The position numbers and the translations under genes are program-made. Of a stretch of DNA of 32,000 nucleotides, positions 23,035-29,694 are shown piece by piece. The notes under the pieces are model-generated. The model saw nothing but the letters and a program-made list of their open reading frames with translations, was not told where the DNA came from and ran no database searches. The DNA is taken from positions 1,506,473 to 1,538,472 of the forward strand of contig NZ_OZ034788.1 in assembly GCF_964028515.1 (NCBI RefSeq), in the 5' to 3' direction. This DNA is from Wolbachia endosymbiont (group B) of Hofmannophila pseudospretella. Its GTDB lineage: Bacteria > Pseudomonadota > Alphaproteobacteria > Rickettsiales > Anaplasmataceae. Positions within the stretch are counted from its first letter, which is position 1. The number at the start of each line of letters is the position of its first letter.

Positions 23035-23069
23035 TATATATGTACGATGACTCGCAAATTCGTCCGCAA
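23035..23069 (-). promoter_or_regulatory. Conserved 35-bp phage motif, copy 1 (faces the RuvC-like gene)
   Basis: On the minus strand it reads TTGCGGACGAATT-tgcga-GTCATCGTACATATATA, preceded by a T-rich tract. The motif ends 43 nt upstream of the RuvC-like gene start position. Confidence 0.55.
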
Positions 23070-23576
23070 TTTTGAAAAAAAATTAAAAAAAATTTCATAT
23101 CCTGCCATTTGAGTTTTTTTCATCTTTACTTATCTTAATAACTATTTTACATAACTTATATTACGCCAATATTTATATTATTATATTATCATATATTATA
23201 TTTTACCTGTATTTAAATATATATATAATATATATAAGACTTCAGTAATCCGTAAACCCTCTTTACTGGCCGATTTTAGCCACTTAACTTTAGAAACGGC
23301 TTTTAGGAATAGAACATAAAAAAGACAATATTATCAATAACTTAACGATTACTGCTTTCTGAAATACTAATTAGTAACTCAGAAATTAGGTACGAAATTG
23401 GTAGTTTTTTACCTATGAAAAAGTAGCTTCAGTAGTGTATCAAAACGTTTAAATCTTATTTTAATTTTTAAAGATTTTATTCTTTTAGATAAAAAAATTA
23501 TTACTACTTTTTTATAATAAATTAGTCATACAAAGTCTTGGTAAAAATCTCTATTCATGAAACTTTTGGAGTTTTT

Positions 23577-24071
23577 ATGAAGAATTCTTATCAAGGAATC
23601 GATTCTACAATTGTTAAACATGTGAGATTTCAAGCTTCGCGCCTTAAATCCAAAAGCTGTTTTATTAACGAAAGTCTCGAAGATATAGAACAAGAGCTTT
23701 TTTGTCAGGTTTGGCAATATCTTAACCGGCACGATGAGAAAAGAAGTAGTTTTAGTACTTTCGTTGCTAGATTAGCTAATTATTGTGCTCGCAATATGTT
23801 ACGCAATCAGTTATGTCTAAAACGTAATATAACTTTTGATGATATAAACGACGATATTCCAGATCATAGGAACTCGGAAATCGAAGCGATAATTCGCACT
23901 GATATAAATAATATAATTTCAACTTTGTCTGAAAAAGATAGTAATTTATGTCAATTACTTAAGGTATTTACTATTACTGAAGTTTCTGTAATAACCAAAA
24001 TACCAAAGACAACTATCTATCGCACACTAGAACGAATACGCAATAAATTCTCAGTTTTAGAGAAGTTATAA
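23577..24071 (+). CDS. Sigma-70 family (ECF-like) RNA polymerase sigma factor, phage-encoded
   Basis: The region 2-like block is EDIEQELFCQVWQYLNRHDEKRSSFSTFVARLANYCARNMLRNQ. The region 4 HTH is LSEKDSNLCQLLKVFTITEVSVITKIPKTTIYRTLERIRNKF. I prefer ATG 23577 (GGAG 5 nt upstream) over the track's TTG 23538. Confidence 0.8.
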   Translation: MKNSYQGIDSTIVKHVRFQASRLKSKSCFINESLEDIEQELFCQVWQYLNRHDEKRSSFSTFVARLANYCARNMLRNQLCLKRNITFDDINDDIPDHRNSEIEAIIRTDINNIISTLSEKDSNLCQLLKVFTITEVSVITKIPKTTIYRTLERIRNKFSVLEKL

Positions 24072-24110
24072 GCTCTCGATTATATTTGCTCAAAAATTTT
24101 TTTTTGCAAA

Positions 24111-24146
24111 TTGCGGACGAATTGCCTAGGTCATCGTACATATATA
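24111..24146 (+). promoter_or_regulatory. Conserved phage motif, copy 2 (upstream of the AAA_24 ATPase gene block)
   Basis: TTGCGGACGAATT-gcctag-GTCATCGTACATATATA, preceded by a T-rich tract. It ends 19 nt before ATG 24166. Confidence 0.55.
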
Positions 24147-27559: not shown

Positions 27560-27576
27560 AAATTCTTCAGGTAGGT

Positions 27577-29625
27577 ATGGATATTTATTGTTCACAAAGA
27601 AATGGACATTATAAATTATTAGGGAAGAAAGAACAATTAAGAACTCAACTCCTATCAAATATAAGGTCATGTCTTTCTTATTTACTGCCAAGAGGAACTT
27701 TTCGTGGTGATAAGTTCTATGTAGGTGATCTACAAGGCAATAAAGGACAAAGTATGATAGTGGAGTTAACTGGCAGTAAAGCCGGATTATGGCATGATTT
27801 TTCTACCGAAGAAGGAGGAGATATTTTTGATCTTTGGGCTGCTGTTACTGGAAAAAATCAATTTACTGATACGATAGAAGATATTGCTAAGTGGATTGGT
27901 TATTCGGAAAAAAATAACACTCTGGGGCAACCAACGGCATCATGGAACTATTACGATGAAAGTGATCAAGTGATTGTTACAGTTTATCGTTATAACACTG
28001 ATTCAGGAAAAAGATATCTTCCTTTTGATGTAAAAAGGTCTAGTTTTACTCTACCAGAGACCAGGCCTTTATATAATATTCCAGGTATCGTGAAATCTGA
28101 TAAGGTGATTTTAGTTGAAGGTGAAAAGTGTGCAGATGCTCTGATAGAGCAAGGTATGACTGCCACAACTGCAATGTTAGGAGCAAATGCACCAATAGAA
28201 AAAACAGACTGGTCACCACTTAAGGGCAAGCATGTTATTATTTGGCCAGACAATGATGAACCAGGTAAACAATATGCTGAGAAAGTTGTGAAAAAGCTTA
28301 CTTTTCTTGGTGTTTTATCACTTACTCTTCTTGAAATACCGGAGAATAAACCAAAGGGATGGGATTCAGCTGATGGTATAGAAGAAAAGATGAATATTCC
28401 TGAATTCATTGAAAATAACTCGAAAAAAATCATCGTTAAGCAATTGCTTAATATTCAAGAATGGAGCGTAGAACGTTTTATAGGTCCAGTACCGGAGCAA
28501 AAGTTTCTTGTTGAAGGGTTATTTCCTTTAGGAGTGACATCTATTCTAGCTGCAATGGGAGATACTGGTAAAGGTATGCTTCTGCTTGATTTAGCACTGA
28601 AAGTTGCGAGTAGAAAAGATCAGCCATGTGGTTTTGGTCCTTTAGTTACTGAACATGGATCTGTTGTAATATTCTCTGCAGAAGATGATATGAGTGAAAT
28701 ACATCGTCGTTTAGAGCGTCTTGACTCACAATGCGAGAGATTAAAATATAAGGATAGGCTCTTTATTGTACCATTACCAAATGTTAGTGGATCACTTACA
28801 ATCATAAAGAGTGTTTCAGGTAAAGTTATAGAGACTTCTCCTGAATTTGAATTGATAACAAAACAACTTAATAAAATAAAAAACTTAAAATTAATCGTAT
28901 TTGATCCACTTGCATCATTTGTGCACGCTGATTTAAATACTGACCCAGCCGTAGGCGATTATTTGATGTCTTTATTATCTGATTTAGCAGGTAGCACTGG
29001 AGCATCAATAATTACTGCTCATCATATGAGAAAGCCAAAAAGTGAAAAACCTATATCGACTGTTGAGCAAGCACGTGATGCCATTAGAGGTACATCTGCT
29101 CTTGTTAATGGTGTTAGGTGTTCATACGCTTTTTGGTCTGTGGAAGATACAGCTAAACCGACAATTTTTAAATCAATAGGAGAATCTGTAAGACAGAACG
29201 CATTATTTTATGGAGCAATTGTTAAAGCAAACGGTTTGGCTGATCGCACTTTACGCACTTATTTAAGAAATGAAGAAACAGGATTGTTAGAGGACATAAC
29301 TGAAAGATTAAGAATAAAAAATATGAACGAAAAAGATTCAAAGCAGCATCTTATAACTGCAATTACACGAGCAGCAATTTCTGGACATCCATTTACCCAT
29401 ACAGGAAGTACAGGAGTGTATAAACAGCGGCATAGACTACCTGAGGAGTTTCACAGTATAGGAAGAGATAGAATGGAGCGTATAGTTCAAGAGCTGTTAC
29501 AAGCACGGAAGTTGGTTAAGGGAATGGCTACTGGTTCAAAAGAAGATAAATGGCTTGACATTCCTAGCGGACCATTTGCTCGCGGTGTTGGAAAGTTTAG
29601 CTGTGGAGCTGAGCTATTCTCCTAA
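27577..29625 (+). CDS. Phage DNA primase/helicase-like protein (N-terminal primase domain, Toprim, C-terminal RepA-like AAA_25 ATPase)
   Basis: 682 aa. The Toprim region is VILVEGEKCADALIEQG..HVIIWPDNDEPGKQYAEKV. The ATPase has Walker A LAAMGDTGKGMLLLDL and Walker B LIVFDPLASF, followed by ITAHHMRKP. Confidence 0.8.
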   Translation: MDIYCSQRNGHYKLLGKKEQLRTQLLSNIRSCLSYLLPRGTFRGDKFYVGDLQGNKGQSMIVELTGSKAGLWHDFSTEEGGDIFDLWAAVTGKNQFTDTIEDIAKWIGYSEKNNTLGQPTASWNYYDESDQVIVTVYRYNTDSGKRYLPFDVKRSSFTLPETRPLYNIPGIVKSDKVILVEGEKCADALIEQGMTATTAMLGANAPIEKTDWSPLKGKHVIIWPDNDEPGKQYAEKVVKKLTFLGVLSLTLLEIPENKPKGWDSADGIEEKMNIPEFIENNSKKIIVKQLLNIQEWSVERFIGPVPEQKFLVEGLFPLGVTSILAAMGDTGKGMLLLDLALKVASRKDQPCGFGPLVTEHGSVVIFSAEDDMSEIHRRLERLDSQCERLKYKDRLFIVPLPNVSGSLTIIKSVSGKVIETSPEFELITKQLNKIKNLKLIVFDPLASFVHADLNTDPAVGDYLMSLLSDLAGSTGASIITAHHMRKPKSEKPISTVEQARDAIRGTSALVNGVRCSYAFWSVEDTAKPTIFKSIGESVRQNALFYGAIVKANGLADRTLRTYLRNEETGLLEDITERLRIKNMNEKDSKQHLITAITRAAISGHPFTHTGSTGVYKQRHRLPEEFHSIGRDRMERIVQELLQARKLVKGMATGSKEDKWLDIPSGPFARGVGKFSCGAELFS

Positions 29626-29659
29626 AAAATTTTTCTGATATAAAAAAATATTTTGATTT

Positions 29660-29694
29660 TTGCGGACGAATTTTGAAGTCATCGTACATATATA
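29660..29694 (+). promoter_or_regulatory. Conserved phage motif, copy 3 (upstream of the tail-collar-like and DUF4815-like genes)
   Basis: TTGCGGACGAATT-ttgaa-GTCATCGTACATATATA, preceded by an A/T-rich tract. It ends 21 nt before ATG 29716. Confidence 0.55.

Follow-up and report, generated by a model that had tools for sequence, protein, structure and literature searches.

A 35-bp motif as the core promoter of three gene blocks in a Wolbachia phage WO prophage, with a phage-encoded ECF-like sigma factor as its candidate reader

Motif copies and gene blocks of the prophage

The stretch of DNA analysed here, referred to as the window, covers 32,000 nt of contig NZ_OZ034788.1 (positions 1,506,473 to 1,538,472) from the Wolbachia endosymbiont (group B) of Hofmannophila pseudospretella and is a prophage of Wolbachia phage WO, 97.5% identical to the wMel record. 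The subjects of this work are a 35-bp motif present in three copies, numbered 1 to 3 by position, and the gene of a small phage sigma factor resembling those of the extracytoplasmic function (ECF) group, which lies between copies 1 and 2 (23577-24071, + strand; strands are given relative to the window). Phage WO is the only mobile element moving genes among Wolbachia and bears the cif genes used for mosquito control, and its gene regulation is essentially unknown so far. The targets of the small extra sigma factors of Wolbachia are described as undetermined in a review (PMC7397232), neither sigma factor nor promoter is mentioned in the main WO genomics paper (PMC9203015), and no description of the motif or of WO sigma targets was found in the literature searched.

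The motif, TTGCGGACGAATT-N5/6-GTCATCGTACATATATA, has exactly three matches in the window, at 23035-23069 (-), 24111-24146 (+) and 29660-29694 (+). Both arms are the same in 3 of 3 copies and the spacers alone vary (TGCGA, GCCTAG and TTGAA in copies 1, 2 and 3 respectively), with a chance expectation of zero for the full pattern and matches in 0 of 100 dinucleotide-preserving shuffles. Searches of the window with up to 3 mismatches allowed in the 17-mer arm returned only the same three sites, those with up to 2 mismatches in the 13-mer arm gave no extra copies, and the core box GGACGAATT with up to 1 mismatch gave no further site followed by a TA tract. A T/A-rich tract precedes each copy and every copy is oriented toward the neighbouring gene, the distance from the end of the motif being 19 nt to the ATG of the AAA_24 gene (24166) for copy 2, 21 nt to the ATG of the BW3TFN gene (29716) for copy 3 and 43 nt to the start position of a RuvC-like gene (22991-22989) for copy 1. 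The copies, their coordinates, identical arms and variable spacer, as well as the T/A-rich lead-in, the orientation and the 19-43 nt to the start codons, are thus as described in an earlier first-pass annotation of this DNA.

Behind copy 2 lies a replication block (24166-29625, +) which encodes, according to Pfam, an AAA_24 protein, an AAA_25 protein, a hypothetical protein, a second AAA_25 protein and a primase-helicase with Toprim and AAA_25 domains. Copy 3 is followed by a tail-fibre block (29716-32000, +) composed of BW3TFN (29716-30399) and a DUF4815 gene that begins at 30416 and continues beyond the window end. Under copy 1, only a 5' fragment of the RuvC-like gene was recovered (22803-22991, -; tblastn with the WOVitA1 and wMel RuvC), since this gene is split by a 1104-bp insertion sequence (IS) at 21700-22803, with its remainder at 21499-21702, and is also truncated by a second IS (DDE_Tnp_1, 20741-21542). 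Consequently, copy 1 now drives a gene relic. The gene identities given in the first-pass annotation hold for Sigma70_r2, AAA_24, AAA_25, Toprim/AAA_25, BW3TFN and DUF4815, and the one that needs revision is the RuvC-like gene, which is a split and truncated relic. The Pfam RuvC match of its WOVitA1 ortholog is itself weak. Its start in the window is ACG (22989-22991, -) where other WO lineages have ATG, and wMel also has ACG; in the wMel RefSeq record the start is set two codons later, at ATC. The RuvC-like and BW3TFN genes, which are unrelated, both open with ATGTCAAT(T/C)CT(C/A)AC, encoding MSILT (window 29716-29730; locus L001 18187-18201).

Mapped starts and conservation of the motif

Transcription start sites (TSSs) were taken from the supplementary tables of a published Wolbachia Cappable-seq study (PMC12558409, Table S1), which give the 50 nt upstream of each start called at a threshold of 10 counts per million (cpm) in all replicates; the final base of each tabulated upstream string was judged to be +1 by comparison with the genome sequence. 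In wMelPop-CLA, two primary TSSs carry the identical motif in their upstream 50 nt, namely pTSS_+_571654 of WD0593 (RuvC-like; about 48 cpm; upstream_50 TTTCAAAATTGCGGACGAATTTGCGAGTCATCGTACATATATATTATACAG, ending in ...TTGCGGACGAATTTGCGAGTCATCGTACATATATATTATACA|G) and pTSS_-_570541 of WD0590 (AAA_24; about 48 cpm; 5' untranslated region of 16 nt; upstream ...TTGCGGACGAATTGCCTAGGTCATCGTACATATATATTT|A) (PMC12558409). Transferred to the window, the copy 1 start falls at 23027 (-), 8 nt beyond the motif and at the first G of CAGGG, and the copy 2 start at the A at 24150 (+), 4 nt beyond the motif. In wAlbB, tandem variant promoters of the form TTGGACG[A/T]AA..CTTGTATATATATGTA are found 5' of the RuvC-like ortholog, both with primary TSSs (PMC12558409); their sequences up to the start read TTGGACGAAAATTTTCCAAATCTTGTATATATATGTA|C and TTGGACGTAATTTTTTCAAATCTTGTATATATATGT|A, GGAC falling at -35/-34 and TATATA occupying -12 to -7 or -11 to -6. 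In total, four primary TSSs lie 4-8 nt past members of the motif family in these two strains. The motif is therefore almost certainly a promoter, the core promoter of the three main transcription units of WO. The first-pass annotation had already proposed a promoter, with starts expected just downstream, and it is just 3' of the identical wMel and the variant wAlbB copies, 4-8 nt away in all four cases, that primary starts are found.

Copies 1 and 2 (hereafter P-ruvC, leftward on the - strand, and P-rep, rightward on the + strand with a 6-nt spacer) are assigned as promoters by exact match and by a wMel TSS of identical sequence. For copy 3 (P-tail-fibre, rightward, + strand), no wMel TSS is listed in the tables at the calling threshold, and its assignment comes from the exact match and cross-lineage conservation; by analogy with the other two, its start would be near 29701-29703. 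A sigma-70-like site on the opposite strand, TTGACA-17-TATATT (11/12) at 29694-29722 (-), overlaps copy 3 and the BW3TFN start codon, its TTGACA being ATGTCAA reversed.

A second proposal of the first-pass annotation, that the motif is an operator for a phage repressor, fits with a short, highly conserved sequence placed 5' of lytic-cycle genes and with the mostly quiescent state of the phage in the Cappable-seq strains (PMC12558409). As a sole function it is nevertheless not supported, because transcription starts at the motif: besides the four primary TSSs in two strains, the architecture is of promoter type, with a T tract, a box placed at -35, a TA tract and a purine start. Repeat analysis reported no dyad or direct-repeat symmetry within the motif, and no cognate repressor was identified. 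An operator without promoter function is thus regarded as very unlikely, and an operator role may overlap the promoter.

The anatomy of these promoters, as fixed by the mapped starts, begins with a T-rich upstream tract, followed by the invariant GGACGAATT box over -35 (GGAC begins at -34 to -38), the site-specific spacer of 5/6 nt, a stretch that varies with the lineage and closes with Y-G-T (about -15 to -13), and an alternating TA tract that serves as -10 and melting region; initiation occurs at the purine directly before GG, 4-8 nt beyond the motif. In copy 2, GGACGA occupies -35 to -30, CG -15/-14 (CGT -15 to -13) and ACATAT -12 to -7; in copy 1, GGAC starts at -38 and TATATT lies at -11 to -6. 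Counted from CGT, the starts of the two wMel copies are 13 and 17 nt away. The general form across lineages comprises a T-rich tract, a purine-purine-A-C-purine-A box at -35 to -30, a G at about -14, a TA tract and a purine start before GG.

Conservation was followed across WO lineages using the serine-recombinase types sr1-4WO (PMC9203015), the window being of the sr3WO type and WOVitA1 of the sr2WO type. The core GGACGAATT-N15/16-ATATAT is kept 5' of the same three genes (RuvC-like, AAA_24 and BW3TFN). WOVitA1 genes share only about 68% identity with those of the window and the tail-fibre block of this phage is found on the opposite side of the sigma gene, and despite this rearranged gene order the motif core is upstream of all three orthologous genes; in the alignments of sr3WO with sr2WO, GGACGAATT and the CGT/TA tract are conserved and the flanks diverged at all three sites. 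The box and TA tract are also kept in L032, wFol, wStri and wCon, and the copy 3 counterpart 5' of the BW3TFN gene is present in WOVitA1, L032, wFol and wCon. The complete 65.6-kb WOVitA1 genome has exactly three occurrences of the exact GGACGAATT, each heading a long same-strand run of core genes, and the loose architecture pattern gave no matches in its remaining 47 kb. According to the annotation, copy 1 of WOVitA1 heads RuvC followed by terminase, portal, capsid and baseplate genes, the tail copy heads BW3TFN followed by tail fibre, sheath, tube and tape measure genes, and the rep copy heads AAA_24 followed by replication genes, so that the three sites together are upstream of nearly all core genes. 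The position of the motif in other WO prophages, which the first-pass annotation had proposed to score, is therefore intergenic, the motif facing the same three genes in genomes that have diverged and been rearranged.

The chance that the copies are functionless remnants of a duplicated or mobile segment is practically negligible. About 49 nt are common to the copies at 84% identity and IS elements are abundant in the window, as such an origin would have it; against it, orthologous positions are kept at about 68% gene identity with diverged flanks, the copies are strictly intergenic, oriented and gene-proximal, exactly three are present in a complete phage, and start sites have been mapped.

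At the same positions, the sequence of the promoter changes with the lineage. The L032 type has GGACGAATT with the CGT moved by 2 nt (N17) and the ATATAT tract at a fixed distance; wFol has GGACGATTT...CCGGGTATATAT, wCfe TTTAGACAC...GATTGTATATAT, sr1WO TTGGACG[T/A]AA or TTGAAC...CTTGTATATAT or CCTGAATATAT, and the L030/L158 type TCAAA[C/T]-N18-TATA. The box variants GGACGATTT, TAGACAC, TTGAAC and TCAAAC occur in lineages whose sigma factors are 36-51% identical. As -35 core, the window, sr2WO, L032 and wFol have GGAC, sr1WO has GAAC or GGAC, wCfe has AGAC and the L030 type has AAAC; the AC never changes, and AAC is absent from the window's lineage. The CGT is not constant, being found at N15/16 in the window and N17 in L032 and replaced by CGG, TGT, TGA or GGT in others; the region before the -10 reads CGT in the window, TGT in sr2WO and sr1WO, TGA in L155 and GGT in wFol and L007. 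In sr1WO, the AAA_24 promoter overlaps the end of the sigma gene, whose stop codon TGA forms part of the TTGAAC box (L154 8858, 10048, 10169; L156 8798, 9954, 10075), and the RuvC promoter is tandemly duplicated, 121 bp apart, both copies being active in wAlbB.

A motif scan of the contigs of the whole collection, which is not an unbiased genome-wide positional test, gave at least four Wolbachia loci and at least two related marine metagenome-assembled genome (MAG) loci among the part of the matches that was listed. Most of the listed matches fell in a conserved coding sequence of many sphingomonads and other proteobacteria, GGACGAATTCCTCGCGCAGGTCGTCGATATA, which has no relation to WO (L034-L150), and scattered chance matches were also present. 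In prophages of alphaproteobacteria other than Wolbachia (about 44% GC, the marine MAG MCMED-G24 among them), the exact form GGACGAATT-N10-CGT-NN-ATATA is found at L010 828-856, L022 1534-1562, L092 828-856 and L132 ~1197-1225, within the 3' end of the preceding open reading frame and 45 nt 5' of a BW3TFN homolog (66% identical).

The phage sigma factor and the reading of the promoters

The sigma gene (23577-24071, +) encodes a protein of 164 aa with sigma2 and sigma4 only, which matches Pfam Sigma70_r2 at 26 bits and the sigma70-ECF model TIGR02937 at 51 bits (cutoff 42.9; residues 26-158), and none of the specific ECF subfamily models reaches its own cutoff with this protein. Its AlphaFold model has a pLDDT of 82 and the best fold matches in the PDB are the ECF sigma factors SigH, SigL, AlgU and SigK in RNA polymerase initiation complexes. 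The 164-aa protein is a genuine two-domain ECF-like sigma factor. The family to which it belongs has about 45 Wolbachia clusters (33-70% identity) and is separated by a gap from generic ECF-like proteins.

In every lineage examined, the sigma gene adjoins motif promoters. In the window it lies between copies 1 and 2 with no motif upstream, as the first-pass annotation had seen, and the motif is likewise absent 5' of the sigma gene in WOVitA1, L032, wFol and sr1WO, implying no autoregulation from the motif. No anti-sigma domain was found among the neighbours of the sigma gene, the next gene being AAA_24 behind its own promoter; an anti-sigma factor of non-homologous type may still be encoded elsewhere. 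The AT-rich region 5' of the sigma gene (23070-23576, +) has its best sigma-70-like site at 23202-23229 (TTTACC-16-TATAAT), which in the consensus scan is not above shuffle expectation, and no Rfam match or significant fold was obtained for this region. In wAlbB, an AT-rich orphan TSS of 318 cpm lies 538 nt 5' of the sigma ortholog. The wAlbB orphan-start region and window 23070-23576 have GACTTCAG and GCTTTTAGGAAT in common.

As to which protein reads the motif promoters, we lean towards the phage's own ECF-like sigma factor. RNA polymerase carrying this sigma would read all three promoters, and the sigma gene, which lacks such a promoter, would be made by the host holoenzyme, giving a two-step cascade over three blocks. 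P-rep would drive replication, P-ruvC would drive the RuvC-like gene and, in intact phages, also the packaging, head and baseplate genes, and P-tail-fibre would drive the tail-fibre genes and, in intact phages, also the tail genes. The cascade suggested by the first-pass annotation is of this kind; it fits the motif-free sigma gene, the ECF-like protein, the wAlbB orphan TSS and a failed sigma-70 scan, and its dependence on the sigma factor is what we infer. In that scan, done for TTGACA-like and TATAAT-like hexamers 16-18 nt apart with at least 4/6 matches per hexamer and at least 9/12 in total, 0 of 3 motif copies were called. Two other candidates for a known element were rejected: TTGCGG as a sigma-70 -35 hexamer, which is at least 21 nt from any -10 hexamer, and a lambda-CII-like TTGC-N-TTGC, which is not kept in copy 3 or in other lineages. 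A genome-wide MEME search by the Cappable-seq authors gave only the TTGACA/TATAAT sigma-70 motif (PMC12558409).

The strongest indirect argument comes from the way in which the arms vary in a comparison of three lineages at three sites each. Arms from different sites of one phage agree at 27.8/30, those from the same site in different phages at only 22.7/30, and the spacer behaves in the opposite way, grouping by site (6-nt NNNTAG at AAA_24, TTGAA-like at BW3TFN). Simple gene conversion is not expected to give this pattern because conversion would homogenise the spacer too. The lineage-specific arms therefore argue for a lineage-specific trans-acting reader. The sigma factors of the three lineages are 54-57% identical, whereas the host RpoD is nearly invariant within Wolbachia. 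Judged from sequence comparison, this concerted change of the arms is what co-evolution with a reader encoded by the phage itself should produce, and not what would be expected of a near-invariant host sigma-70.

Several observations weigh against the phage sigma as reader. The -10 part includes an AT-rich TATATA at the canonical -12 to -7 and, in some copies, a G at -14, and therefore resembles an extended -10 usable by host sigma-70. The two wMel copies are unequal in the distance from box to start, the difference of 3-4 nt being loose for a bipartite sigma site, and the CGT varies across lineages. The predicted recognition-helix residues of sigma4 vary between lineages with the same GGACGAATT. 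Unlike typical ECF systems, there is neither autoregulation nor an adjacent anti-sigma gene. No TSS of the sigma gene was called in the wMelPop-CLA tables (at least 10 cpm in all replicates), in which two of the motif promoters are active, each with about 48 cpm. Finally, the variant found at L007, L008 and L016 has the GGACGAATT promoter 5' of the primase and no sigma gene in the loci examined, a pattern-limited search of these contigs having found none. At this variant (L007 7739-8126, L016 1-365, and L008), three tandem promoter-like types precede the primase: GGACGAATT, GTGAACAG and CCGGAAAAA..CCGGTAT.

The ECF interpretation of the motif itself, in which the first-pass annotation had read GGAC-N15/16-CGTA as -35 and -10 elements, is only partly right and fails as a general rule, given the shift or replacement of CGT elsewhere and the varying distance to the start. 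Whether the -35 box covaries with the recognition helix of sigma4 was also considered: all IPKTT sigmas occur with GGACGA, which is suggestive only, and the relation is blurred by sr1WO, where a single sigma goes with TTGAAC as well as TTGGAC boxes.

These observations bear on the main rival explanation, possible if less likely, that the motif copies are extended -10 promoters of the host RpoD whose GGACGAATT box is bound by another phage protein, the candidates being an activator of class II type, a repressor of lytic genes or a sigma-like protein acting via region 4 alone. It would account for the TATATA at -12 to -7 in wAlbB together with Y-G-n before the hexamer in most lineages, and for promoters that are active in uninduced cell culture with no sigma TSS called (wMelPop-CLA). 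The 3-4 nt variation between box and start is better tolerated by an activator than by a sigma, the box is kept at the sigma-less variant locus, and several helix-turn-helix regulators are encoded by WO. It is opposed by the failure of all three copies in the sigma-70 consensus scan and by the CG, not TG, that precedes the -10 in the window lineage. Moreover, the box consists of one asymmetric 9-mer and shows neither dyad nor direct repeat, unusual for a dimeric regulator, the lineage-specific change sits in the -10-proximal arm, where a sigma and not a -35 activator would read, and the sigma gene alone is consistently adjacent, which no other regulator gene is.

Comparison with known systems and wider implications

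In functional terms, the nearest counterparts of the WO system are sigma factors of other phages that have few dedicated middle/late promoters. Classical phage sigmas are SPO1 gp28 and gp33/34 and T4 gp55. The gp36 of phiEco32 (tAATGTAtA) and the gp47 of Salmonella phage 7-11 (GTAAtg-N16-aCTA) act on a few conserved middle/late-gene promoters, as shown in vitro. Like these two, WO has a small sigma-70-family protein with a handful of near-identical promoters before replication and structural blocks, the start lies few nt downstream, and no such promoter precedes the sigma gene itself. However, phiEco32 and 7-11 are virulent phages of free-living hosts with a sigma dependence proven in vitro, whereas WO is temperate, its host being an obligate intracellular alphaproteobacterium, and its sigma dependence is inferred. 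The promoter sequences are unrelated, and WO covers nearly all core genes with three promoters.

With regard to ECF promoters, Escherichia coli sigmaE recognises GGAACTT-N16-TCTGA and Bacillus subtilis sigmaW TGAAAC-N16-CGTATA. The WO sigma resembles the ECF factors (group 4) in having sigma2 and sigma4 only and in its length, 164 aa being within the usual range of about 160-200 aa. The WO box resembles an ECF -35 element in its invariant AC after purines (GGAC, GAAC, AAAC) with Y-G-T 15-17 nt downstream, and some WO lineages have CGTATA as in sigmaW. On the other hand, the window lineage has GAC and not AAC, the CGT is unfixed and is followed by a long TA tract, and the start, which in ECF promoters lies about 6-8 nt after a CGT placed at a fixed 16-17 nt, is 13 and 17 nt away in wMel. 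The WO sigma further differs from ECF systems by the lack of autoregulation, of an adjacent anti-sigma gene and of a subfamily match at cutoff, and its regulon would be phage replication and morphogenesis instead of envelope stress. With the sigma-70 promoters of Wolbachia (TTGACA-17-TATAAT; PMC12558409), the WO promoters share an AT-rich hexamer at about -12 to -7 and a purine start, but they have no TTGACA-like hexamer at 16-18 nt, and GGACGAATT is without a host counterpart.

If the phage sigma reads the motif, the three blocks would be the first known targets of the orphan WO sigma, and a three-promoter regulon tied to it would provide a concrete model of the lytic switch. A sigma factor combined with a motif reporter offers a direct assay, and the compact, possibly orthogonal promoter/sigma pair could serve the long-sought genetic manipulation of Wolbachia.

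A broader and rather improbable reading is that each WO lineage pairs a divergent sigma factor with a matching dialect of promoter arms, forming orthogonal sets which keep co-resident prophages transcriptionally separate, that sigma-less relics may exploit it, and that the system is older than Wolbachia. If true, the sigmas of several helper phages could activate the L007 type with its three tandem elements in trans, in a satellite-like manner, and an origin before Wolbachia would follow from the exact box that marine alphaproteobacterial prophages carry 5' of their orthologous tail-fibre gene.

Relatives of the sigma gene were also observed in other arrangements. In a Magnetococcales prophage (L157 6664-12385), a sigma homolog 34% identical to that of the window is found two genes upstream of AAA_24, following a LexA/S24-type repressor and a serine recombinase, and the GGAC-type motif was not found in this locus. 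In a wCfe prophage (L159 10001-11210), AAA_24 is preceded by a tandem pair of sigma paralogs that share 36% and 51% identity with the sigma of the window, and the promoters have a TTTAGACAC box. As for the window itself, the 1.1-kb IS that splits the RuvC-like gene is present in two copies, 21700-22803 and ~8287-9390, for which 100% identity over 300 nt was reported.

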